From positions 1-26,614 of IMG/VR virus record IMGVR_UViG_2703719347_000005: a DNA stretch of 26,614 bases, one strand, 5' to 3'. Below the pieces are notes generated by a model, which saw only the letters and a list, made by a program, of their open reading frames with translations, did no database searches and had not been told where the DNA came from. Position numbers and translations under genes: made by a program. Shown piece after piece: positions 1,533-11,105 of this stretch; positions within the stretch are counted from its first letter, which is position 1; the number at the start of each line of letters is the position of its first letter. This stretch comes from a virus (taxonomy: Duplodnaviria > Heunggongvirae > Uroviricota > Caudoviricetes).

Positions 1533-1692
1533 TTACATGTTTTCGATGATCGCTTCACCAAACTCTGAACATTTCAGCAGCTTAGCGCCTTCCATCAGAC
1601 GTTCGAAGTCATAAGTTACGGTCTTGGCATTGATTGCGCCTTCCATACCTTTAACAATCAGGTCAGCCGCTTCAGTCCAACCCATATGGCGC
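1533..1692 (-). pseudogene. icd: 3'-terminal fragment of the isocitrate dehydrogenase gene (icdC-like), prophage attachment-site duplication
   Basis: Minus-strand translation reads ...[53 protein letters not shown], matching the Icd C-terminus. Homology to icd stops abruptly near 1692, with an in-frame stop just upstream. Confidence 0.85.
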
Positions 1693-1995
1693 AGCAATAT
1701 CTACGCCATAAATTCTTAAGAGACTGATTTTATTATTTATTTAACCAATGCATCGAATTTTTATTGCCTTAAACTACATTGTTTAACTTGTTGATTTAGA
1801 TAATTTTAAGCTTCGTTTTGGGGAATAAATTATCGCCTTTGACCCAAAACCTATCGGCCATTACAACGTGGCGCCAGGGACTAAAGCTTTGCTCCTGAGC
1901 TAACGCGACGAGCAGTTGTACCTCGACCCGGTTCACTGGGTTACGCGCCAGGGTGGTGGGACAAACCGCCATTGATTAATGCGAAGTACTGATAA

Positions 1996-2029
1996 TATAA
2001 AAAATAAAAACCGGGATAGAGTATCCCGG
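1996..2029 (-). terminator. Rho-independent terminator of the 147-aa cargo ORF
   Basis: Hairpin CCGGGATA-gag-TATCCCGG (2011-2029), followed on the minus strand by T-tract TTTTTATTTTTT, 8 bp after the stop at 2037-2039. Confidence 0.6.
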
Positions 2030-2036
2030 CTCAAAG

Positions 2037-2480
2037 TTAGTGCACCGTAAGCTTTGATGGATTATCAGAGATGTCGAATGAAAACTCATCCCCATCTTTA
2101 TTGAAGCTGAAAGAATCAACATTATTTGTCTTAACGGACACTAAATCACCTAAAGGCCCATATACGCAAGTTGCCGTTCCACCGTTAGTAAACAACACTT
2201 CCTTGGTCACACCGGATACATTGGTAATTGTATTTACAGAAACCACGTTTGCTAAATTTTTTGGATAAGCATATTTGATTGACGAATAGTTGATGGTGAG
2301 CACGGTTCCACTATTGCTAATGGCAGCTCGATGGCCCCCATTCATCTCAGCCACCATACTCCCGTCTGGATAATAAGTCACTTTATGCCCATTTTGTTCA
2401 ATAACTTTTTTCCCGTCGGAATACTCAGTTACTGTATTAATACCCAACTGAAAAACTTTCGGTTGTTCATTATCTGCCAT
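2037..2480 (-). CDS. Hypothetical protein (147 aa), prophage cargo near the attachment site
   Basis: Uninterrupted ORF with its own terminator. No signal peptide or recognisable motif; Gly/Asn/Thr/Val-rich, beta-rich appearance. Confidence 0.5.
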   Translation of the reverse strand: MADNEQPKVFQLGINTVTEYSDGKKVIEQNGHKVTYYPDGSMVAEMNGGHRAAISNSGTVLTINYSSIKYAYPKNLANVVSVNTITNVSGVTKEVLFTNGGTATCVYGPLGDLVSVKTNNVDSFSFNKDGDEFSFDISDNPSKLTVH

Positions 2481-2666
2481 TTAATTCCCCTTTTTTTCTC
2501 CTGAAGAAACCCCATCAACCTTTACTTACTTTGTTAATATACACAAATATTTTTATAAATCCGCAGCCTAGATCAAATAAATGCTCATTGTTTTCAGCTG
2601 AGCCCTATCGAACTAATACAGAAATGAACTAAACGAATAAAATTTTTCTATTCTAGAAAATTGATA

Positions 2667-3932
2667 CTACTTAACCTGTAACAGGTCGGAGTATCTTGTA
2701 GTATAGCAAGGTGAAAGCATTTCCCGCTTCATCTGCCAGGCCGTTTGGATCCCCTGCCCTGCAAAATACAGCGTTCCCCTTCCGTCTTTCGCATTGAGAT
2801 GGTCGAGTACTTCCATCAGTTTCTCGCTATTCCGCCGTGGCACGTTATCATCAAACAAGTTTAGCTGGGCCACCCCCTGACTGTAGAAATCCCCCAGCAT
2901 CACTCCGGCTTTCTGGTAGCGATACCCGTCTCGCCAGATTGCATCGAGACATTCCGTCGCCGCTGTGATTATGTCCCGACTGTCCTGGGTCGGGGTCAAT
3001 AGTTTCACTGATGCACTATTGCCGTAGTACGGCTCATTCAGAGCAAATGGGCTGGTTTTGACGAATGCAGAGATAAAGCGGCAGTACTGATGCTCACCAC
3101 GGAGTTTCTCCGCGGCACGGGATGCGTATAAGCATATCGCCTGGCGCATCTCTTCGTAGGTGGAAATCCGCTGCCCAAAGCTGCGACTACAGACAATCTC
3201 CTGCTTTACCGGCGCGAACTCCTCAAGACCGAGACATGGCTCTCCGCGTAGCTCCCGCACGGTTCGCTCCAGTACCACATTAAAATGCTTCCGGATAAAA
3301 CGGATATCGGTATCCGCCAGTTGCAGTACAGTTTTAATCCCCATGGCCTCCAGTTTTTTACTGATGCGGCGCCCGACGCCCCAGACCTCATCCACCGGAA
3401 GCAAAGCCATCAACTTCCTCTGTCTTTCCAGGTTCGACAGATCCACCACGCCTCCGGTCTGCCGCTGCCACTGTTTCGCGGCGTGATTGGCCAGCTTCGC
3501 CAGGGTTTTAGTCTGGGCTATGCCGACGCCGACCGTTAGGTGTGTCCTGCGCAGAACCGTCTCGCGAATTTCCCTGCCAAAGTCGGTAAGGTCGCGACAA
3601 TTCCGAACTCCTGTCAGGTCGCAAAATGCCTCATCAATACTGTAAATTTCGCAGCGTGGAGAGAGTTCCTCCAGCGTTGTCATCACTCGGTTGGACATAT
3701 CGGCATAAAGCTCATAGTTGCTGCTAAACGCGATAATACCGTGCCGGCGAAACACGTCCTTTTGCTTGAAATAAGGCTCACCCATTTTGACGAAGGGCTT
3801 CGCTTCTGGCGAGCGGGCGATCACACAGCCGTCGTTGTTTGACAGAACGACCACCGGACGCCCTTTCAGGTCAGGACGAAATACGGTCTCGCACGATGCA
3901 TAAAATGAATTCACATCACAAAGCGCAAACAT
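2667..3932 (-). CDS. umuC: Translesion DNA polymerase V catalytic subunit UmuC (Y-family polymerase)
   Basis: Starts MFALCDVNSFYASCE with the SIDEAFCDLTG catalytic motif, ~421 aa. ATG is at 3930-3932, one nt after the umuD stop. The ORF-track 5' extension to 3992 is rejected. Confidence 0.9.
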   Translation of the reverse strand: MFALCDVNSFYASCETVFRPDLKGRPVVVLSNNDGCVIARSPEAKPFVKMGEPYFKQKDVFRRHGIIAFSSNYELYADMSNRVMTTLEELSPRCEIYSIDEAFCDLTGVRNCRDLTDFGREIRETVLRRTHLTVGVGIAQTKTLAKLANHAAKQWQRQTGGVVDLSNLERQRKLMALLPVDEVWGVGRRISKKLEAMGIKTVLQLADTDIRFIRKHFNVVLERTVRELRGEPCLGLEEFAPVKQEIVCSRSFGQRISTYEEMRQAICLYASRAAEKLRGEHQYCRFISAFVKTSPFALNEPYYGNSASVKLLTPTQDSRDIITAATECLDAIWRDGYRYQKAGVMLGDFYSQGVAQLNLFDDNVPRRNSEKLMEVLDHLNAKDGRGTLYFAGQGIQTAWQMKREMLSPCYTTRYSDLLQVK

Positions 3933-3933
3933 C

Positions 3934-4353
3934 TTAGCCAGCTGATTTAATGATGTACGTAACCACCCCGAACACGTCGAGAGTGTCCTCACTACCGACG
4001 ACTATTGGCGAATATGCAGGGTTCATTGGGTTAAGCTGAACCCGCGGATGCAGTTGCAGCTTCTTAACGGTGAATTCCCCATCCACAGCAGCAATAACGA
4101 TATCGCCATGAACTGCTGTTCTTGAGCTATCCACGACCAGAAGATCACCTTCCCCTATGCCTGCGTCTTTCATGCTGTCGCCGGCGGCTTTGACAAAATA
4201 CGTCGCACTTGGGTGGTTAACGAGCAACTCGTTCAGATCAATACGTTGCTCAACATAATCCTGCGCTGGACTAGGAAAGCCGCACTGCACAAGGTCACTG
4301 TACAACGGGAGCAGCATGATCTGGCGTAACTCAACGGGCGTGTAGAACTGCAT
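3934..4353 (-). CDS. umuD: UmuD, LexA-like self-cleaving accessory subunit of polymerase V
   Basis: 139 aa from ATG 4351-4353 ([13 protein letters not shown]...). Conserved Cys-Gly cleavage site (LVQCGFPSP), Ser (GDSMKD) and Lys (TVKKLQL) present. Confidence 0.9.
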
Positions 4354-4372
4354 AATAAACTCGCTCACAAAA

Positions 4373-4392
4373 TACTGTTTTTATATACAGTA
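4373..4392. promoter_or_regulatory. LexA (SOS) box upstream of umuD
   Basis: TACTGTTTTTATATACAGTA: canonical CTGT-N8-ACAG palindrome, 20 bp upstream of the umuD start codon. Confidence 0.8.
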
Positions 4393-4567
4393 GTTTTATT
4401 CGCTAATCTAATCAATAGAGGTTTTAACTATCAATCAGGAACACAGAGGGGGGGGAAACCAGTCACCTTTGAGCCCCTGATATTGGTTTCACTTAGTGAT
4501 TATGTTGTCTATATGCCAGCTTTGAACTATCTTTTCTCAAAACCTGCTACTGCAAAATGGATATAAG

Positions 4568-4693
4568 ATGTCACAGACGGACTTGCTGATTGTTGTTTTT
4601 ACGCTGGGCATTTTAGCCTTTGGCTATTCCATATGGTTCATTTCGAACAGAATACTCTGCTCAATATTTCATAGACTTACAAAGAATATATGA
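4568..4693 (+). CDS. Small hydrophobic ORF (41 aa; MSQTDLLIVVFTLGILAFGYSIWFISNRILCSIFHRLTKNI), putative small membrane protein
   Basis: ATG-initiated ORF below the ORF-track cutoff with one predicted transmembrane helix. Divergent from umuD and on the same strand as the terminator at 4900-4934. Weak RBS. Confidence 0.25.
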   Translation: MSQTDLLIVVFTLGILAFGYSIWFISNRILCSIFHRLTKNI

Positions 4694-4816
4694 ATTGGGA
4701 TGGTATAGACCAAAATTCATGGTCCTTGCTCCTCGACGTCGGAAGGTACTTACAGATCATCTTCGCTCTTAACCTATCACATCGGCACCTACTCCATGAT
4801 GTAACAGCTCAGACCA

Positions 4817-4934
4817 GAAATATCTGGAAGCTTTAGGCATCTTCTTGGAAGATAGACGAGCGCAAAGACGCACACAGCAATGATGTTATGTAGTATTTTC
4901 CCCTTGAGTGTGCCTGCTCAAGGGGATTTTTTAT
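4817..4934 (+). repeat. Direct repeat copy 1 (~118 bp), homologous to 7965-8079, ending in an intrinsic terminator
   Basis: Shared GAAATATCTGGAA, a 22-bp identical core GCGCAAAGACGCACACAGCAAT (4860-4881 and 8008-8029), and a terminator hairpin with conserved loop. Confidence 0.6.
4900..4934 (+). terminator. Rho-independent terminator (plus strand) overlapping the 3' end of the invertase gene
   Basis: CCCCTTGAG-tgtgcctg-CTCAAGGGG followed by ATTTTTTAT. The minus-strand version has no U-tract, so it is not the invertase terminator. Confidence 0.6.
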
Positions 4935-5487
4935 CGCCGCATTGTACCGGCAAATTTTTGTAAATAGTCTTCACATCTACGCCTATCACATCTGCGATCT
5001 GTTGCCGAGTAGCGCCGTTCTCCAGCATTCTGCGGCACCGCTCCACCACTTCTTCAGTCATTACCCGGCGGCGGCCGCCGACTCTCCCCTGCTCCCTCGC
5101 TGCGGCTAACCCGGCTCGGGTACGCTCCACTATCAGCTCGCGCTCCATTTCTGCCAGGGCGCTCATGACGTGGAAGAAGAATCGCCCTGCTGGCGTCGAA
5201 GTGTCGATCGAGTCGGTAAGGCTGCGGAAATTCACCCCACGCGCCTGCAACTCTGACACGAGCGTAATCAGATCGCGCACGCTGCGGCCCAGCCGATCCA
5301 GTTTCCAGACCACCAGCACATCACCCGGGCGGAGCCGTCGCAGCGCTCGCTTCAAACCTGGCCGCCGGGCATTCTTCCCGCTGGCCATATCCTCGAAAAC
5401 CAGCTCACATTCTGCGCGGATCAGCGCGTTTTTCTGTAAATCGAGGTTTTGATCCCCGGTTGATACCCTCGCATAGCCAATCAGCAC
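4918..5487 (-). CDS. Serine DNA invertase, Gin/Hin/Pin/Cin family
   Basis: MLIGYARVSTGDQNLDLQ...VVWKLDRLGRS...FRSLTDSIDTSTPAGRFFFHVMSALAEMERELIVERT closely matches Gin/Pin over the catalytic domain. GTG start at 5485-5487 with SD AAGGAG 7 nt upstream. C-terminal ~45 aa diverge from what I recall of Gin/Pin. Confidence 0.9.
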   Translation of the reverse strand: MLIGYARVSTGDQNLDLQKNALIRAECELVFEDMASGKNARRPGLKRALRRLRPGDVLVVWKLDRLGRSVRDLITLVSELQARGVNFRSLTDSIDTSTPAGRFFFHVMSALAEMERELIVERTRAGLAAAREQGRVGGRRRVMTEEVVERCRRMLENGATRQQIADVIGVDVKTIYKNLPVQCGDKKSP

Positions 5488-5510: not shown

Positions 5511-5539
5511 ATTGTAAAAAGCCGCGGCCATTCGCTCAA
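5511..5539 (-). promoter_or_regulatory. Putative sigma70 promoter of the invertase gene, -35 overlapping crossover site L
   Basis: On the minus strand: -35 TTGAGC (5539-5534), 17-bp spacer, -10 TACAAT (5516-5511). The -35 hexamer lies inside the left half of the 26-bp site. Confidence 0.3.
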
Positions 5540-5556
5540 ACCCTCGTTTGGGCGAA
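5531..5556. other. gix/hix-like 26-bp recombination site L
   Basis: TTCGCTCAAACC-CT-CGTTTGGGCGAA: two 12-bp half-sites (TTC....AAACC) around a 2-bp core, as in gix/hix/cix. Exact reverse complement occurs at 11080-11105. Confidence 0.65.
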
Positions 5557-5923
5557 GCCTCTTTTTGGAGCAAAAAACATGGCCGAACTTAACCCGCCAC
5601 TGGGCACGACGACGCCGGAAATATTCATGGACAACGTTAAGCGCGCTGACGAGCTGGTTAACGGTCCGGCCGGAACGGTTGACGACCGCGGCGGTGAACC
5701 ACTCGATACCTGGCGCCAGATGATGGCGAAAAACGATGAGGTCAGGCAGAACCTGATCCCGCTCAGTAAGCAATACCAGACGCTGGCAGCGGCGCAGGCG
5801 GATATCGCGAATATTCCGGTGGGGTCGACCACGTATTACCGTAGCCCGGATGACAACGCGTTAGCTGTAGAAGTGATCAATAACGCCGGTACGCTGCAGC
5901 CTACCGGGCGGAAAATGCCATCT
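5531..5923. repeat. Left arm of ~390-bp inverted repeat (site + RBS + first ~115 codons of fibre A)
   Basis: First 48 bp are 100% identical to revcomp of 11058-11105; the next ~345 nt are roughly 85-90% identical by eye to the fibre B 5' end. Confidence 0.85.
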
Positions 5924-7918
5924 TATTCTTCGCTACGCGGGGCGAACATTCTGTTTGATGCTCTGAATGAATATTCAGCAAATGATCCTAAATTCGGTGC
6001 GTGGGACTGGTATCGCGGAGCAGTGATCACCTTCAGCACTACTGATGCCAATATTTCGTTACCGACTCCAGTGGCACAGTATTCCGGCGTATGGTCTGCA
6101 GATAAATATTATGACCTTGCCCGCCTGCCTGTAAGGGTTGGTGATAAGTTAACCTTTTCCGTGCTGGCGTGGTTCCAGGATGCCGGTGCTATGTTCCATA
6201 TTTTCTGGATGTCCACCGCTGGCGCTGTTATTTCGTCTAAATCACAGCTTGCTCTGGCCGCAGGTATAAATACGCCGGTTATCACAGATGTCATTCCATC
6301 CGGCGCATCCTACGTCAGGATCCGGGTTGAAAATACTACGGCAGGGATATTTAAGGTCGGTGCTTATGCTGCTGCGTTGGGGGCTATTCAGCCTGATTTT
6401 GTTCGCGCCACGCCGGATAAAACTTATCTGTCAGCCGTCATATCATCCGGTATTTCGGGGTTAACATCACGCGTCGATGCGCTCCAGGGAGCTATCTCTG
6501 TTGGTTATGCTTATGCAGCTGCCTGGCAAGTCGGGAAATTTATCAACCCAACTACAGGGGCCATCACTGATAACTCTGCGCTGAACTGCGCAATCATTCC
6601 GCATTCCGACGGGGATGGCTGGCTGGTGACAGCCCTTGTGACAGGATCGGCGACTGCTCTGGCCGTGTACATGAACAGCGCCGGGATGGTATTGGGTGTT
6701 GAAGGGCGGGGAACGGCAACCCCGCAGCAGTATACTAATTATCGTCTTAACGTTCCTGCCGGGACAACACAGATCGGTATAACGGGTCGTAATTCTGCGG
6801 AAATTGCTGTTAAAAAACTTGCTGTCGTTGAGACGGCCAAAGTACTGGCATCGATCGATTCTCTGGATGTCAGGGTACAAACAATAGAGGACTCTCTTGT
6901 TTATGATTTTATTAAACACGACGTCACGATTACCTCAGGAGCATATATAAACCGTGCTGATGGCAGTGTGGTGGCAAATGCTGCATTTGACTGTGCAATT
7001 TTTAATTACACAGCAGGAGACCGCTGGAAAGTCACAGCGAGGGTTAACGGCAGTGGAGTTTCGCTCGCGGTGTATATGAACAGTGCCGGGACGGTTATCG
7101 GCACCGAAGGGAACGGTACTACAGAATCGGTGGACTACACCGATTACGAGCTAACACCTCCTTCCGGCACCGCCAAAATCGGGATCACCACCCGTATAGC
7201 CGTCCCCATTATTGCCAAAAAATATGTAGTCGTTCCCGGTGGTAGCACGGTCAGTCCGTGGTCTGGAAAAGTCATCGATGTGATGGGTGACAGCAACGTT
7301 GCTTATAACAAATGGCAACCTCTTGTCGCGGCAGAACTGGGCTGCACTTTTCTGAATCACGGGGTCGGTGGTTCGAAAATAGCCAAACCGGATAGCTCCT
7401 CAACGCAAATCAGCATGTGCGACGATGTGCGAATCAATGCTCTGGATACATCGGCGGCGGCGTGGATTTGCGGTCCGTGGGCAACAAACGACTGGGCGCA
7501 AAATATTCCGATTGGAAGTATCACCGACTCAGTGAATACAACCGTTTACGGCGCGCTGAACATCATCGCTCAGAAACTGCGGGCGCGGGCCCCAACAAAA
7601 CCTATCCTGTGGGCCACGCCGTTCAATGGGGACTATGATTCTCCACGTTCAGCGGCATGGGTTGACGGTGAAACAAATGGCTATGGGCGGGTTTCTGACT
7701 ATGCAGCGGCCATACGCGCCGTGGCGTTGCGATATGGATTCCCCCTAATAGACCTTAACGCTGACTGTGGCTGGACAAAATTCAATAGCACTAGTTTTTT
7801 ATTAACCGAGGGGGATACAAATCCGTCCCGCATCCACCTCAATGCGGACGCGGGGCCTGTGCGTATTTCCTCACTGATAACCGATCGGCTTACTGCCCTA
7901 CAGAAACTGGTGGGCTAG
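5579..7918 (+). CDS. Alternative tail fibre A (779 aa): shared N-terminal anchor, three repeated ~100-aa modules, C-terminal GDSL/SGNH-like esterase domain
   Basis: N-terminus MAELNPPLGTTTPEIF... shared with fibre B for ~115 aa. C-terminal region carries MGDSNVA, HGVGGSK, WATNDW and a late His (SRIH), reading like SGNH hydrolase blocks. Currently antiparallel to the tail operon. Confidence 0.7.
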   Translation: MAELNPPLGTTTPEIFMDNVKRADELVNGPAGTVDDRGGEPLDTWRQMMAKNDEVRQNLIPLSKQYQTLAAAQADIANIPVGSTTYYRSPDDNALAVEVINNAGTLQPTGRKMPSYSSLRGANILFDALNEYSANDPKFGAWDWYRGAVITFSTTDANISLPTPVAQYSGVWSADKYYDLARLPVRVGDKLTFSVLAWFQDAGAMFHIFWMSTAGAVISSKSQLALAAGINTPVITDVIPSGASYVRIRVENTTAGIFKVGAYAAALGAIQPDFVRATPDKTYLSAVISSGISGLTSRVDALQGAISVGYAYAAAWQVGKFINPTTGAITDNSALNCAIIPHSDGDGWLVTALVTGSATALAVYMNSAGMVLGVEGRGTATPQQYTNYRLNVPAGTTQIGITGRNSAEIAVKKLAVVETAKVLASIDSLDVRVQTIEDSLVYDFIKHDVTITSGAYINRADGSVVANAAFDCAIFNYTAGDRWKVTARVNGSGVSLAVYMNSAGTVIGTEGNGTTESVDYTDYELTPPSGTAKIGITTRIAVPIIAKKYVVVPGGSTVSPWSGKVIDVMGDSNVAYNKWQPLVAAELGCTFLNHGVGGSKIAKPDSSSTQISMCDDVRINALDTSAAAWICGPWATNDWAQNIPIGSITDSVNTTVYGALNIIAQKLRARAPTKPILWATPFNGDYDSPRSAAWVDGETNGYGRVSDYAAAIRAVALRYGFPLIDLNADCGWTKFNSTSFLLTEGDTNPSRIHLNADAGPVRISSLITDRLTALQKLVG

Positions 7919-7964
7919 TTAACAGTGCTTATCGCGTAGTAGTGTTTCTAAAATGCTGTAATAA

Positions 7965-8079
7965 GAAATATCTGGAAATGTTTTGAATTATCCAGGAGTA
8001 TATCAACGCGCAAAGACGCACACAGCAATAATGTCATTCATCGCTTTTCCCCCGGCGTGCCTCCGGGGGGATTTTTTAG
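7965..8079 (+). repeat. Direct repeat copy 2 (homolog of 4817-4934) downstream of fibre A
   Basis: See copy 1. Stem sequence differs from copy 1 with compensatory changes (CCCCTTGAG/CTCAAGGGG versus CCCCCGG/CCGGGGG) while the loop (GTGCCT) is conserved. Confidence 0.6.
8049..8079 (+). terminator. Rho-independent terminator downstream of fibre A
   Basis: CCCCCGG-cgtgcct-CCGGGGGG followed by ATTTTTTAG on the plus strand. Confidence 0.6.
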
Positions 8080-8173
8080 TCCTTTATGACGTCGTCTTGT
8101 CCCGTCCTCAGGGAAGCTATAGTGGTCTTATTTCACGTGGTAACTGAAACTGAATACAGTACGAGTCAGCTTA

Positions 8174-8890
8174 TTACGCGATTGATAAAATCCCTTCATA
8201 GCTCTGAGTGACGAGGTCAACCATATCCATTTTTTCAGCCTGAGAGAGTATTCCGCCCGCCCACACCCCTGTCATTGCAATATCCACAGCGCCTAAAAAA
8301 TCTGACGTGATATAGGAGTAGCCAGCATAAATCGACTTATTCGGAACAGGGATTGCGCGGGCGGTAACAGCGACCTGTTCAGTCGATAACAGCTCACTGT
8401 TCGTCATTTTATGAAGCTGAACCATAGAGTTATTCACATCGAGGAAAACCAGATGGAATTTACTGGTGTCCAGTGGAGTCGCGAGGGTGGCGGTTGCTGT
8501 CCCGCTTGACCGCCCCACAATCCCCCTGATTTGAGGAATGGCCGGTTCAAAAACAAACGTATCCCCCTGCGGTTGTACAGCAGAGCCGAGATAGTTACCC
8601 ATGCCCAGCGCTCTGGTAGTGCTTTTAGGCCGGAGTAACACCATCATGGTTTTAACCGGGTTATCCGTGACTTTCAGATCATAACCCCCCGCACCAACAC
8701 CACCCGTAAACCAGTACGTGTTGATGACAGGTGCCCCCACTATGGTTGGCTCTTCCCCAAAAATAGCCCCAAAGTTCTGGCTGCCAAATGTGGCAATGCT
8801 CGCGATAGACGGCTGCGGATAACTCGAACCAATAATACAGTCATCATCCCAGACGGCATCAACATTAATAGATAATCCCTGATTAGACAT
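8174..8890 (-). CDS. Hypothetical protein (238 aa) co-transcribed downstream of fibre B; possible fibre accessory or assembly protein
   Basis: Start ATG 8888-8890 (MSNQGLSINVD...), 7 nt after the fibre B stop, with GAGG SD overlapping that stop. The ORF-track 5' extension to 8989 overlaps fibre B and is rejected. No family recognised. Confidence 0.5.
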   Translation of the reverse strand: MSNQGLSINVDAVWDDDCIIGSSYPQPSIASIATFGSQNFGAIFGEEPTIVGAPVINTYWFTGGVGAGGYDLKVTDNPVKTMMVLLRPKSTTRALGMGNYLGSAVQPQGDTFVFEPAIPQIRGIVGRSSGTATATLATPLDTSKFHLVFLDVNNSMVQLHKMTNSELLSTEQVAVTARAIPVPNKSIYAGYSYITSDFLGAVDIAMTGVWAGGILSQAEKMDMVDLVTQSYEGILSIA

Positions 8891-8897
8891 AAGTACC

Positions 8898-11057
8898 TCA
8901 CAACGTGATTTCAAACATGACGCAATAGTTATCCATACGGATAACCTCGCTATTAAGGGTAAAACTGATAATGTCGCCCTGGCTGTCACGCAGACAACCG
9001 CGCGGCCCGGTCAGGCGACCCGGTGACTGGCCGGTGGTGCCGCCGTGAAAGGCATACTGAAGAATGGCCCCGGCAGGGATATCCGCTGCCGTTGAGACAG
9101 TCACCGCGTCATAACGGATATTGAGGCTGGTCAGCGGGATAATCGCACGTGTGTCAGGGTGCAGTAGCCGGAAACCATAATTACCCGGATCAGAAACAAT
9201 GCTGGTATCAAAGCTCAGCCGACCCACCGGATTCAGCCACACCGTAGCGGCGCGGCCCTGGCGTTGATGACTAACTGGCATCAGTGGTTTTGCCGCTTTG
9301 CCGTCAACCAGCGCCCGCTTTTCCATCACGGAAATATAAAGCCCCTGAATATAGGAACTTCTGGCGGTGAGGTGTGCGCCATCCGTGTAATCGTGAATGT
9401 ACATCGGGTTCGTGAGATAGACATTTTCGCGTGTCTGCGCCAGCTCCAGCAGCGCCATCGGAATGGTGGGATAGGCTGTGTTCGGCGTCCGGTTTATCCA
9501 GCTGCTGAACTGATAAACAAAAATCGGCACATGGACTTCTTCGCCGCACACAGCTGAGGCGTGGGCATCGATCCGCTGTTGCATGGTGTCGAAAATAGCC
9601 TGATAGTCTGCTTTGGTGGTGCCTTTCGTCTGGTCTGCTTCGCCCTGCATCCAGTACATCGCCACAGGCCGGTAGGTTTTCCCGAGCTCCTGAGCGCGGG
9701 CGTAACCATAACTGATATCATCGAAAACTCGCTGAATGTACTTTCCGGGATACGCCGCCAGCACATCAATGGGTTGACCGCCCTCCGCCGGAACAGAACC
9801 CAGAATGATCAGATCATCCGGGTTAAAGCCATAGTTCTCGGCAATCATCAGTTCGTACCAGCCGCGAATGCTGGCCCCCATTGGGGTTTCCCATGCCTGG
9901 CCGTTATCGGTGTTTTTATACGTCTCGACGTAGGGAACCAGCTGAGCATGGTTTTCTGCCGAAGTGCCGGAGCCATCCTGCGCCCGTGCCCCACCGATAA
10001 AACGCAATGCGGTATACAGCGCGGCTATCGTAATCAGGGCCTGAGTATTCACGCCAGCGGCAAGCGATTGTCCGTAACCGATTTTATGGGCAATATCCGG
10101 CAGGCGTGAGTAAATGGACTGATTAAAATAGCGCAGAAATTCAGGGGAAATAATCGCTTTAACTTCCAGAGTTTCGGCTTTCAGCGATTTTACCTCTCCA
10201 TGATTCGCTTCAATTTTCCCCGCAGCAAATGCCCCGTTTTTTTTGATACCCACAGCCGGACGATTTAACGTATCACGCCACGCCATAACGAAATCGCGGA
10301 ATGTCGCAGTAGAAATGCTGGCGTTGGCTGGTAACCCTAAGATACTGGCAATCGTAAGATTGTTGATCTCAGCCTTCCCTGATTTCAGTACCCCTTTTTT
10401 ATTAATGGCAAAACAAAGCCGTTTAAGGGTGTCATAAACTGAAACAGCGTTACCGTCAGCCACTAATGATAAAGCAGAATTCCCGATATTCAGACGTGAT
10501 GACGAGATGATCGACGAAATAAATTCATCCGCTGAGAGCTTTTTTAATTCTGCTTTATTCGCCTTAATCCACCCGGCAAGCAACCGGCCCGCCTCATCCA
10601 GCCCTACCGAATAATTTTTTCGTTCATCCATAAAGGCAAGAGACATACCCGCTGGCGCATTCTGGCTGAACGTTGCTCTGATCAAATCAGTCATGATATT
10701 GACCAGCTCCTGAGATGGCATTTTCCGCCCGGTAGGTTGCAGCGTCCCGCCGTTATTCATGTACTCGTCCGCCAGCGCCCAGACGTCCTGGCTGCGAACA
10801 TAGGTCGTGGAGCCAACGGGGATATTCGCGATATCTGCCTGCGCTGCCGCCTCATTCATATACTGCTTGCTGAGTGGGATCAGGTTCTGCCTGACCTCAT
10901 CGTTTTTCGCCATCATCTGGCGCCAGGTATCGAGCGGTTCACCTGCGCGGTCGTTAATCGTTCCGGCCGGACCGTTCACCAGTTCGTCAGCGCGCTTGAC
11001 GTTATCCAGGAATATTTCAGGCGTCGTCGTTCCCAAAGGCGGGTTAAGTTCGGCCAT
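8898..11057 (-). CDS. Alternative tail fibre B (719 aa): shared N-terminal anchor, SASA-like acetylesterase domain, extra C-terminal domain
   Basis: N-terminal ~115 aa shared with fibre A. Residues ~325-585 carry YGQSLAAG, WMQGEAD and DGAHL, consistent with SASA/DUF303-type SGNH esterases. Colinear with the tail operon, so this is the presumably expressed fibre. Confidence 0.7.
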   Translation of the reverse strand: MAELNPPLGTTTPEIFLDNVKRADELVNGPAGTINDRAGEPLDTWRQMMAKNDEVRQNLIPLSKQYMNEAAAQADIANIPVGSTTYVRSQDVWALADEYMNNGGTLQPTGRKMPSQELVNIMTDLIRATFSQNAPAGMSLAFMDERKNYSVGLDEAGRLLAGWIKANKAELKKLSADEFISSIISSSRLNIGNSALSLVADGNAVSVYDTLKRLCFAINKKGVLKSGKAEINNLTIASILGLPANASISTATFRDFVMAWRDTLNRPAVGIKKNGAFAAGKIEANHGEVKSLKAETLEVKAIISPEFLRYFNQSIYSRLPDIAHKIGYGQSLAAGVNTQALITIAALYTALRFIGGARAQDGSGTSAENHAQLVPYVETYKNTDNGQAWETPMGASIRGWYELMIAENYGFNPDDLIILGSVPAEGGQPIDVLAAYPGKYIQRVFDDISYGYARAQELGKTYRPVAMYWMQGEADQTKGTTKADYQAIFDTMQQRIDAHASAVCGEEVHVPIFVYQFSSWINRTPNTAYPTIPMALLELAQTRENVYLTNPMYIHDYTDGAHLTARSSYIQGLYISVMEKRALVDGKAAKPLMPVSHQRQGRAATVWLNPVGRLSFDTSIVSDPGNYGFRLLHPDTRAIIPLTSLNIRYDAVTVSTAADIPAGAILQYAFHGGTTGQSPGRLTGPRGCLRDSQGDIISFTLNSEVIRMDNYCVMFEITL

Positions 11058-11105
11058 GTTTTTTGCTCCAAAAAGAGGCTTCGCCCAAACGAGGGTTTGA
11101 GCGAA
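10713..11105. repeat. Right arm of ~390-bp inverted repeat (fibre B 5' end + RBS + site R)
   Basis: Reverse complement matches 5531-5923; outermost 48 bp are identical. Confidence 0.85.
11080..11105. other. gix/hix-like 26-bp recombination site R (inverted relative to site L)
   Basis: TTCGCCCAAACG-AG-GGTTTGAGCGAA on the plus strand, the exact reverse complement of site L. Confidence 0.65.

Follow-up and report, generated by a model that had tools for sequence, protein, structure and literature searches.

We identify, in a 26,614-nucleotide stretch of virus DNA (the window), a umuDC operon that very probably encodes a functional, LexA-repressed DNA polymerase V (UmuD'2C) and that is carried as the terminal cargo (moron) of an intact Klebsiella-type, HK97-like siphoprophage residing in icd of Escherichia coli. 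The features of this end of the prophage are:

1533..1702, minus strand: icd' (icdC-like), a displaced icd 3' fragment (Icd residues 362-416), which marks the prophage/chromosome junction
1820..1986, plus strand: decayed fragment of a gene for SRAP (YedK-like SOS-response-associated peptidase) at the prophage end, annotated as a pseudogene
2008..2032, minus strand: hairpin and T run resembling a terminator, located past ORF147, proposed by the consensus scan only
2037..2480, minus strand: ORF147, hypothetical protein WP_042346543.1, in the variable slot 3' of umuC
3932..2667, minus strand: umuC, Y-family catalytic subunit of DNA polymerase V, 421 aa, assigned by Pfam, NCBIfam and motifs
4353..3934, minus strand: umuD, autoproteolytic subunit of DNA polymerase V, 139 aa, with Cys24-Gly25 and Ser60/Lys97
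4373..4392, minus strand: LexA (SOS) box TACTGTATATAAAAACAGTA, a perfect match to the consensus, 19 nt 5' of the umuD ATG
4410..4415, minus strand: putative -35 hexamer TTGATT, proposed from the conservation of TTGA
4918..5487, minus strand: Pin/Hin-family serine DNA invertase, the phage-side border of the cargo slot

The umuD and umuC genes are intact

Read on the minus strand, umuD extends from its ATG at 4353-4351 to a TAA stop at 3936-3934, and umuC from its ATG at 3932-3930 to a stop at 2669-2667. The sole base separating the umuD stop from the umuC start is G3933, exactly the one nucleotide given in the initial annotation. Its further claim that both genes are intact and carry their diagnostic motifs agrees with the residues, coordinates and family scores that follow.

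The UmuD protein is identical in sequence to RefSeq WP_004179627.1. Cys24-Gly25, Ser60 and Lys97 were placed by direct residue counting and by alignment with K-12 UmuD, which is also 139 aa long and 74% identical; the alignment is gap-free, and the cleavage site and the Ser60/Lys97 dyad occupy positions equal to those of the K-12 protein. UmuD scored 103 bits against Pfam Peptidase_S24 (PF00717; cut-off 23.3) and 166.9 bits against the NCBIfam UmuD subfamily NF007621 (curated cut-off 110), and its top PDB matches were E. coli UmuD and UmuD' (8gmt, 1umu). The NCBIfam LexA model covers the C-terminal half only, with 80.6 bits, under its cut-off of 110.95. With its 139 residues the protein has no N-terminal DNA-binding domain, the absence of which separates UmuD from LexA, CI and UmuDAb. 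Membership in the phage P1 HumD family was also considered and rejected, the equivalog NF051876 scoring 110.6 bits, under its cut-off of 120. A difference from K-12 UmuD is found in the N-terminal arm, where residues 14-18 read LLPLY in the prophage protein and TFPLF in K-12. Given the 74% identity and this altered arm, the fit of the protein with E. coli RecA, with the beta clamp and with control by Lon/ClpXP is an assumption on our part.

UmuC (RefSeq WP_042346540.1) is 86% identical to K-12 UmuC, with 421 residues compared to 422. All four of its Pfam domains, namely IMS (palm/fingers), IMS_HHH (thumb), IMS_C (little finger) and the DUF4113 found at the C-terminus of UmuC, are above threshold, and it scored 861.7 bits against the NCBIfam UmuC subfamily NF002955 (curated cut-off 431), whereas the Pol IV models of NCBIfam remained far under their cut-offs. 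Alignment with the K-12 protein places Asp6, Phe10-Tyr11, Asp100-Glu101 and, at 356-360, QLNLF; there is a one-residue deletion near position 48, and Asp100-Glu101 is equivalent to D101/E102 of K-12. The steric gate Tyr11, the clamp motif QLNLF and the catalytic carboxylates D6/D100/E101 are thus all conserved.

A LexA box and a candidate umuD promoter

The plus strand at 4373-4392 reads TACTGTTTTTATATACAGTA, and the coding strand therefore reads TACTGTATATAAAAACAGTA, which is, letter for letter, the K-12 umuD operator, situated 19 nt from the ATG in both cases. Table 4 of PMC3009722 gives the same 20-mer for the SOS box of umuD. The box perfectly matches the CTGT-N8-ACAG palindrome of the Enterobacterales LexA regulon (TACTG(TA)5CAGTA type), and a perfect TACTGT-N8-ACAGTA is found once in the whole window, compared to about 0.0015 expected in 26.6 kb. 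The canonical LexA box previously claimed before umuD therefore stands, matching K-12 umuDC in both 20-mer and spacing, and its claimed distance of 20 bp was correct to within one base. A box upstream of umuD is conserved in most of 80 species-representative loci, and it was present in all four GenBank phages checked, 14-21 nt from the ATG, three of them having the identical 20-mer.

From the hexamer TTGATT a spacer of 17 nt leads to TACTGT (4392-4387), the first half-site of the LexA box and a candidate -10 element. As ten aligned upstream regions, K-12 included, all have TTGA at this spacing, we infer that TTGATT and TACTGT constitute the umuD promoter, with its -10 inside the LexA box. A consensus promoter scan did not return this pair, since TACTGT scores poorly as a -10 against the consensus, and proposed another weak pair instead (TTGATA, 4434-4429, with TAGATT, 4410-4405). 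The arrangement suggests that the operon has its own LexA-controlled promoter. Behind pin lies a hairpin whose T run is on the opposite strand, with none on the coding strand, so some LexA-independent read-through from pin is possible. At the other side of the operon no terminator-like site was found between umuC and ORF147. Scans of the whole window with Rfam, at gathering thresholds, and for tRNAs gave no matches.

Proposed mechanism and the host copy

Based on the established biology of E. coli polymerase V, we propose that LexA binding, induction, UmuD cleavage and mutagenic activity would proceed at the prophage operon as follows. In an undamaged lysogen, host LexA would keep the operon off by occupying the operator, which overlaps the putative promoter. 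Upon DNA damage, RecA* would bring about the self-cleavage of LexA, and umuD and umuC would be transcribed and translated as a coupled pair. RecA* would also promote self-cleavage of UmuD at Cys24-Gly25 via the Ser60/Lys97 dyad, and UmuD'2 together with UmuC, RecA-ATP and the beta clamp, contacted through QLNLF, would then carry out error-prone translesion synthesis. Literature searches turned up no experiments on an enterobacterial polymerase V carried by a phage.

The initial annotation had called for a search of the host chromosome for its own umuDC. We carried out this search in strain 5CRE51, in which the locus is identical, and found a chromosomal umuDC beside hlyE, about 21 kb away and under the same operator. 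As 5CRE51 keeps its chromosomal operon, the prophage umuDC is an extra copy, and the lysogen would possess two polymerase V operons governed by the same operator.

The strains carrying the locus are E. coli from human clinical samples, 5CRE51 originating from urine. It is conceivable that a second SOS-inducible error-prone polymerase could raise the supply of mutations induced by damage or by antibiotics, for example under fluoroquinolones, and the umuDC copy can spread from Klebsiella to E. coli through lysogeny. The interest of the locus is applied; records already exist of both genes, of how they are regulated and of temperate phages carrying them, so the locus does not constitute a new kind of system.

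Distribution, selection and possible beneficiary of the operon

The exact UmuD protein is indexed in 10,814 blocks. We examined eight such places, at several chromosomal sites, and the layout GpJ-fibres-invertase-umuD-umuC was present in all eight. The pin-umuDC block accompanies related prophages at sapB and other sites, and was also found in Klebsiella, Raoultella, Enterobacter and Citrobacter. Compared with phage-borne relatives, dN/dS is 0.018-0.060 at a dS of 0.4-0.7; values of 0.02 to 0.06 indicate strong purifying selection and a function that is maintained.

The same mechanism could primarily serve the phage. According to this alternative, which we consider possible yet rather unlikely, the LexA-timed polymerase V copies the damaged phage genome, and the prophage supplies its own Weigle reactivation and mutagenesis. 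The mutation supply of the phage would then be raised at induction and the very lesions that triggered induction would be bypassed. This would explain why a conserved terminal block under purifying selection is kept in a very widespread family of Klebsiella prophages despite the umuDC of the host. The persistence of the module across integration sites and genera is in line with such a benefit, as is the position of umuDC near tail-fibre genes or att in the complete phage records vB_SosS_Oslo (from sewage, according to its record), ENT39118 and PHB10. Moreover, E. coli and Klebsiella (in a housekeeping context) own a umuDC themselves, and the need of the host alone leaves the retention by the phage unexplained. 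However, an induced phage already has the polymerase V of its host at its disposal, the operator is that of the host, hence the timing would be the same as that of the host enzyme, and morons are commonly retained for the fitness of the lysogen.

In E. coli the locus is rare: ten of 5,426 complete genomes have it at 100% identity and one more at 94%. About 19 further E. coli genomes hold a 330-bp remnant alone, and in E. coli HS, the only remnant genome examined, a frameshifted polymerase V pseudogene adjoins the remnant. One could thus argue that E. coli carries the operon as a passenger, inert or incompatible, which came in with a Klebsiella phage and has stayed intact only through the recency of the transfer; it would then either be silent or yield proteins that fail to assemble a working mutasome with the RecA and beta clamp of E. 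coli. The rarity, the remnants, the HS pseudogene and the 26% divergence of UmuD from its E. coli counterpart would all suit this explanation, which we nevertheless regard as improbable. The operator and promoter layout is the same as that of E. coli itself, every catalytic, cleavage and clamp-binding residue is retained, and the dN/dS of the family is low. In addition, MucAB and RumAB, which are much more divergent orthologues, function in E. coli.

Prophage setting and the cargo slot

The element is an intact siphoprophage of about 40 kb in icd of the E. coli chromosome, the site of e14. In the window the gene order is fibres-pin-umuDC-ORF147-icd'-iraM, umuDC being situated between the Pin invertase, which matches Resolvase and HTH_7 of Pfam and phrog_125 (DNA invertase), and the displaced icd 3' fragment, which shares 83.5% nucleotide identity with the functional icd 3' end. 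At the opposite prophage end in strain 5CRE51, xis and int lie beside icd, and the phage gene set between the two ends is complete. The morphogenesis genes are 94% identical in nucleotides to those of Klebsiella phage KPP5665-2.

The operon occupies the extreme end of the element and differs in composition from its AT-rich flanks (50-57% GC in umuDC, 37-42% in the flanking DNA), and the ORFs on either side of it vary among relatives. These properties could hint at a separate chromosomal islet abutting the prophage rather than phage cargo, a reading to which we give very little credence. The phage invertase and the icd' junction enclose the operon, nothing is found between e14 and icdC on the K-12 chromosome, related prophages take the pin-umuDC block along to sapB, to other sites and into other genera, and umuDC is also present in phage genome records. 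The initial view of the operon as prophage-borne is accordingly upheld by the Pin and icd' borders, by int and xis at the far end and by the mobility of the module with related prophages.

The slot occupied by ORF147 holds unrelated ORFs in relatives. No match to ORF147 was found in Pfam, NCBIfam, PHROGs, PADLOC or PDB sequences; its best PDB matches, to ribosomal protein L6 (E = 0.04), were dismissed as noise. Several relatives have a 140-aa ORF between pin and umuD, which the window lacks. The SRAP fragment spans residues 22-77 of 230 and contains a frameshift and a stop, and in relatives SRAP, full or fragmentary, is likewise found beyond umuC. We also compared the cargo slots of vB_EcoS-733R5, KPP5665-2 and ST405-OXA48phi1.3; the comparison was partly informative, as the records begin and end at different points. 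The retron-type RT and TIR genes noted in the course of this comparison are among the tail genes, outside the umuDC slot.

That the operon serves as a phage-phage conflict module (defence or counter-defence) instead of in mutagenesis, as its position in the slot of mcrA in e14 and the differing flanking ORFs without family match might suggest, is hardly plausible, since UmuD, UmuC and ORF147, like Pin and the SGNH fibre, had no defence-system match in PADLOC (E <= 0.01), the two subunits are orthodox polymerase V proteins with all diagnostic residues present, and LexA control is of the SOS regulon type.

Comparison with known systems

The cryptic prophage e14 of K-12 likewise resides in icd and leaves an icdC-like fragment, and the structure of its end is alike: an invertible fibre segment, Pin, a cargo gene and the junction. 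The order stfE-pinE-mcrA-icdC-iraM in K-12 parallels that of the window and confirms that umuDC takes the place of mcrA, as originally proposed. The cargo is mcrA in e14 and umuDC with ORF147 in the present prophage, and e14 is a different phage, whereas the prophage described here is an intact Klebsiella-type element.

The chromosomal umuDC of K-12 (b1183-b1184) has the same gene order and near-equal sizes, and shares with the prophage copy the 20-bp operator, the 19-nt distance and the -35/17-nt layout, as well as the cleavage site, the catalytic dyad, the polymerase active site and the clamp motif. The two operons differ at the stop-start of umuD and umuC, which overlap in K-12 and are 1 nt apart in the prophage, and in location, that of K-12 being placed between hlyE and dsbB. 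They are about 72% identical in nucleotides with saturated synonymous sites, which indicates that the prophage operon split off long ago as a lineage of its own rather than arising by recent duplication.

Phage-borne umuDC with the same box is already known, and the layout is common in Klebsiella prophages, a point that the initial annotation leaves out. Both UmuD and UmuC have PHROG families (phrog_811 and phrog_1268), and the genes are found in the GenBank records of Klebsiella phage ST846-OXA48phi9.2, Salmonella phage vB_SosS_Oslo, Escherichia phage PHB10, Cronobacter phage ENT39118, Enterobacter phage CobraSix and Morganella phage IME1369_01; umuD-umuC at the tail-fibre/att end of temperate siphophages is thus an arrangement shared with the present element. 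The ST846-OXA48phi9.2 locus is 88% identical in nucleotides (98% for UmuD and 96% for UmuC at the protein level), and its umuDC likewise has a Hin-type invertase and SRAP as neighbours. Unlike the GenBank phages, the present element has E. coli as its host and icd (the e14 site) as its place of integration, its SRAP is fragmentary, and the ORF that follows umuC, ORF147, differs. PMC8617712 mentions UmuCD in prophages of K. pneumoniae. Our observation is real but ordinary, given that annotations of umuDC cargo already exist for many phages and for genomes in the thousands.

Additional SOS-linked polymerases of the UmuDC type are also carried by other mobile elements, namely mucAB (pKM101), impCAB, samAB and rumAB (SXT/R391 ICEs). 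These are borne by plasmids or ICEs, whereas the present copy is borne by a prophage, and they are much more divergent from UmuDC than the prophage copy is. PMC11602152 describes Rum pol as a hypermutagenic polymerase V homologue on ICEs; this trait is that of Rum pol, and we do not carry it over to the prophage copy. HumD of phage P1 is likewise a phage-encoded protein of the UmuD family, and unlike HumD the prophage UmuD possesses a 24-residue N-terminal arm, a cleavage site and a umuC of its own.

A LexA-box-headed umuDC operon

A minus-strand reading of 2400-4700 confirms both the coordinates and the operon description of the initial annotation, which had placed a umuDC operon with a canonical LexA box at 2667-4392:

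4392-4373, minus (coding) strand: LexA box TACTGTATATAAAAACAGTA, a 20-mer 19 nt from the umuD ATG
4353 (ATG) to 3936-3934 (TAA), minus strand: umuD, 139 aa
3932 (ATG) to 2669-2667 (stop), minus strand: umuC, 421 aa

One nucleotide, the G at 3933, separates the umuD stop from the umuC start. The 139-aa protein matches Pfam Peptidase_S24 and the 421-aa protein matches IMS, IMS_HHH, IMS_C and DUF4113, and both exceed the cut-offs of the NCBIfam subfamily models for UmuD (166.9 bits, cut-off 110) and UmuC (861.7 bits, cut-off 431). As alternative identities, the NCBIfam models for Pol IV, LexA and HumD all score below their own cut-offs. UmuD is 74% and UmuC 86% identical to the K-12 proteins, and alignment to these shows that Cys24-Gly25, Ser60 and Lys97 are retained in UmuD, and Asp6, Tyr11, the Asp-Glu pair and the QLNLF beta-clamp motif in UmuC. 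The solved structures closest to UmuD are those of E. coli UmuD and UmuD', and those matching UmuC are Dpo4/DinB-type Y-family polymerases only.

On the plus strand the box reads TACTGTTTTTATATACAGTA (4373-4392). The perfect TACTGT-N8-ACAGTA occurs once in the window, where about 0.0015 occurrences are expected by chance in 26.6 kb, and the same 20-mer lies upstream of K-12 umuD, likewise 19 nt from the ATG, and is the umuD SOS box of Table 4 in PMC3009722. A survey of UmuC relatives covered 80 species-representative genomic loci. It detected an adjacent umuD in 70 of them, and in 67 of these 70 an SOS box can be recognised no more than about 120 nt upstream, in most cases at 14-25 nt. Loci of Escherichia, Kosakonia, Enterobacter and Serratia share the exact 20-mer. 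Ten upstream regions, taken from the window, two relatives carried by phages, and K-12, Klebsiella, Kosakonia, Enterobacter and Dryocola loci, were aligned; a TTGA 17 nt 5' of the TACTGT is invariant among them, and the layout of -35, 17 nt and box-embedded -10 is therefore conserved. We infer that these two elements would form the umuDC promoter; the pair is not called by a simple consensus promoter scan.

An apparently intact prophage in the e14 site

The operon lies between the E. coli chromosome and the phage genes:

1-405: ycgX, E. coli chromosome, at the window start
between ycgX and iraM: ymgL and ymgK, E. coli chromosome
1107-1430: iraM, E. coli chromosome
1533-1702: displaced icd 3' fragment (icd'), Icd residues 362-416
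1820-1986, plus strand: SRAP (YedK-like peptidase) pseudogene fragment, the first foreign DNA past icd'
5487-4918: Pin-family invertase, beyond umuD

After the invertase come a tail-fibre segment, TipJ and the remaining siphovirus morphogenesis module. In 5CRE51, an E. coli urine isolate with a locus identical to that of the window, the element extends further, past genes for terminase, lysis, replication and immunity, as far as xis and int adjoining icd (about 40 kb, an ISKpn26 insertion aside), and is thus apparently an intact prophage in the e14 attachment site. As the end of the cryptic prophage e14 in K-12 reads stfE-pinE-mcrA-icdC-iraM, umuDC and the hypothetical ORF147 fill precisely the mcrA slot, the position that the initial annotation had assigned to umuDC. 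The backbone is of Klebsiella type, its morphogenesis genes being 94% identical in nucleotide sequence to Klebsiella phage KPP5665-2. The GC content of umuDC is 50-57%, with AT-rich spacers on either side, and that of the neighbouring E. coli flank 29-37%. ISKpn26 (IS5-like) interrupts the prohead protease/capsid region of 5CRE51 (L001 40665-41861) and is absent at window position ~23064, so the window comes from another strain, in which the prophage is uninterrupted at that point.

The tail-fibre segment (5531-11105, 5,575 bp) is 100% identical to that of 5CRE51 but inverted relative to it, and is edged by 393-nt inverted repeats (85% complementary):

5532-5557 and 11079-11104: hix/gix-like 26-bp sites TTCGCTCAAACCCTCGTTTGGGCGAA, at the start of the inverted repeats
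5579-7918, plus strand: SGNH/GDSL hydrolase fibre, 779 aa
11057-8898, minus strand: alternative fibre, 719 aa, with a 271-aa partner

The sites lie 22 nt 5' of the start codons of these two alternative whole fibre genes, the N-terminal ~115 codons of both are duplicated within the repeats, and the window is in the orientation expressing the 719-aa fibre. The classical G/C/P segments exchange C-terminal parts only, whereas here entire ORFs are exchanged behind tipJ, in a switch that by comparison of the two sequences appears to invert actively.

Variable neighbours of umuDC

The SRAP fragment, between icd' and ORF147, corresponds to residues 22-77 of 230 and contains both a frameshift and a stop. 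Relatives carry an SRAP gene, complete or broken, past umuC at the prophage/chromosome junction; this arrangement is seen in 17 of the 80 species representatives and at several Klebsiella places. The fragment may be either decayed DNA-damage cargo that was once a partner of umuDC, or what remains of an ancestral attP whose target was an SRAP gene of the host. ORF147 (2037-2480, minus strand; 147 aa, beta-rich) found no match in any library tried, and its exact sequence is present on 570 contigs; the slot after umuC in relatives holds unrelated unknown ORFs of 290, 568, 154, 87 and 118 aa. A consensus scan found no terminator-like site between umuC and ORF147.

A group II intron, absent from the window, is present in two Klebsiella relatives whose UmuD is the identical protein (L095 6052-7980; L099 4144-7980, two tandem copies). 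It has the orientation of umuD and splits the LexA box at its 3' edge, precisely between positions 19 and 20: TACTGTATATAAAAACAGT / intron / ATTTTGTGAGCG...ATG. Its ends are 5' GTGCGCC ... CTACCGCGAC 3', and it encodes a 494-aa RVT_1 protein. As the interrupted box still reads ...ACAGTG, the intron would occupy an SOS-controlled 5' UTR, and it accounts for those members of the UmuD 90% cluster that are labelled 'group II intron reverse transcriptase'.

An extra copy of separate ancestry

The host chromosome of 5CRE51 carries its own umuDC, flanked by hlyE and dsbB and with the same 20-bp operator, at a distance of about 21 kb from the prophage operon; the prophage operon is an extra copy, at least in this strain. 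The two copies share ~72% nucleotide identity (longest common exact stretch 23 nt) and their synonymous sites are saturated; the prophage operon therefore belongs to an old, separate lineage and is no duplicate of the host gene. The closest chromosomal relative among the species representatives is that of Klebsiella sp. I138 (UmuC 91%); there and in K. pneumoniae ATCC 13883 umuDC lies in housekeeping contexts. Klebsiella hosts too have their own copy. In the latter type strain umuC (L015 6001-7266) is split into ORFs of 183 and 225 aa, which points to a frameshift or pseudogene, if not to a sequencing error.

Comparisons with phage-borne relatives show strong purifying selection: against Klebsiella phage ST846-OXA48phi9.2 dN/dS is 0.018 for umuD (dS 0.52) and 0.047 for umuC (dS 0.67), and against the E. 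coli 3426 prophage 0.060 for umuC (dS 0.40). The assembly collection lists 10,814 blocks for the exact UmuD. All eight places examined keep the order GpJ – fibre genes – Resolvase/invertase – (small variable ORFs) – umuD – umuC, followed by a variable ORF, often by an SRAP gene as well, and then by chromosomal flanks of several kinds. The 90%-identity clusters hold 2,020 (UmuD) and 3,572 (UmuC) members, mostly Klebsiella among those listed. The locus is rare in complete E. coli genomes (10 of 5,426 at 100% identity); one further genome has it at 94%, the related prophage in this case lying beside sapB. In about 19 others nothing but a remnant of 330 bp persists, which begins at the LexA box and is 92.5% identical to window 4369-4700. 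In the one examined, E. coli HS (L005 5754-6329; NC_009800 2063228-2063803), it is adjoined by a 'DNA polymerase V' pseudogene with a frameshift, which has a tRNA-like site and decayed fibre/esterase genes beside it; the whole appears to be what is left of a related prophage that formerly carried umuDC.

Proposed mechanism and beneficiary

The best-supported reading is that the prophage operon would follow the textbook pol V mechanism; a sequence basis is shown for each step, and the steps themselves are taken from E. coli pol V biology. Operator-bound LexA would repress the operon until DNA damage generates RecA*, leading to LexA cleavage and transcription; UmuD would then be cut at Cys24-Gly25, promoted by RecA*, and UmuD'2C with RecA-ATP and the beta clamp would perform error-prone translesion synthesis. 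The observation of the initial annotation is confirmed, and its interpretation supported as far as sequence reaches.

The beneficiary could be the phage, its own damaged DNA being replicated after induction; what makes this reading attractive is that pol V is already present in the hosts and that the umuDC module is a conserved phage block. It could also be the host, through a gain in survival or mutation supply. Readings of umuDC as an inert passenger, as a separate chromosomal islet and not phage cargo, or as a defence function fit poorly.

Relation to known phage-borne and mobile umuDC

Muc, Imp, Sam and Rum are the classical mobile-element pol V orthologues. Among phages, ST846-OXA48phi9.2 carries an operon 88% identical in nucleotide sequence, likewise adjoined by a Hin-type invertase and SRAP, and umuDC is annotated at the fibre/att end of Salmonella phage vB_SosS_Oslo, Escherichia phage PHB10, Cronobacter phage ENT39118, Enterobacter phage CobraSix and Morganella phage IME1369_01. 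All four phages checked have a LexA box before umuD, identical to the 20-mer in three. PHROGs has families for UmuD and UmuC, and both exact proteins are named in RefSeq. UmuCD is listed among K. pneumoniae prophage genes (PMC8617712), earlier work (PMC3765255) described SRAP in prophages as well as the SRAP-UmuCD neighbourhood, and PMC11602152 describes the Rum polymerase on ICEs as hypermutagenic. Given the phage records, PHROGs, RefSeq and the literature, phage-borne umuDC is therefore already known, and the only local detail is that this Klebsiella-type phage occupies the e14 site in a few E. coli lineages.
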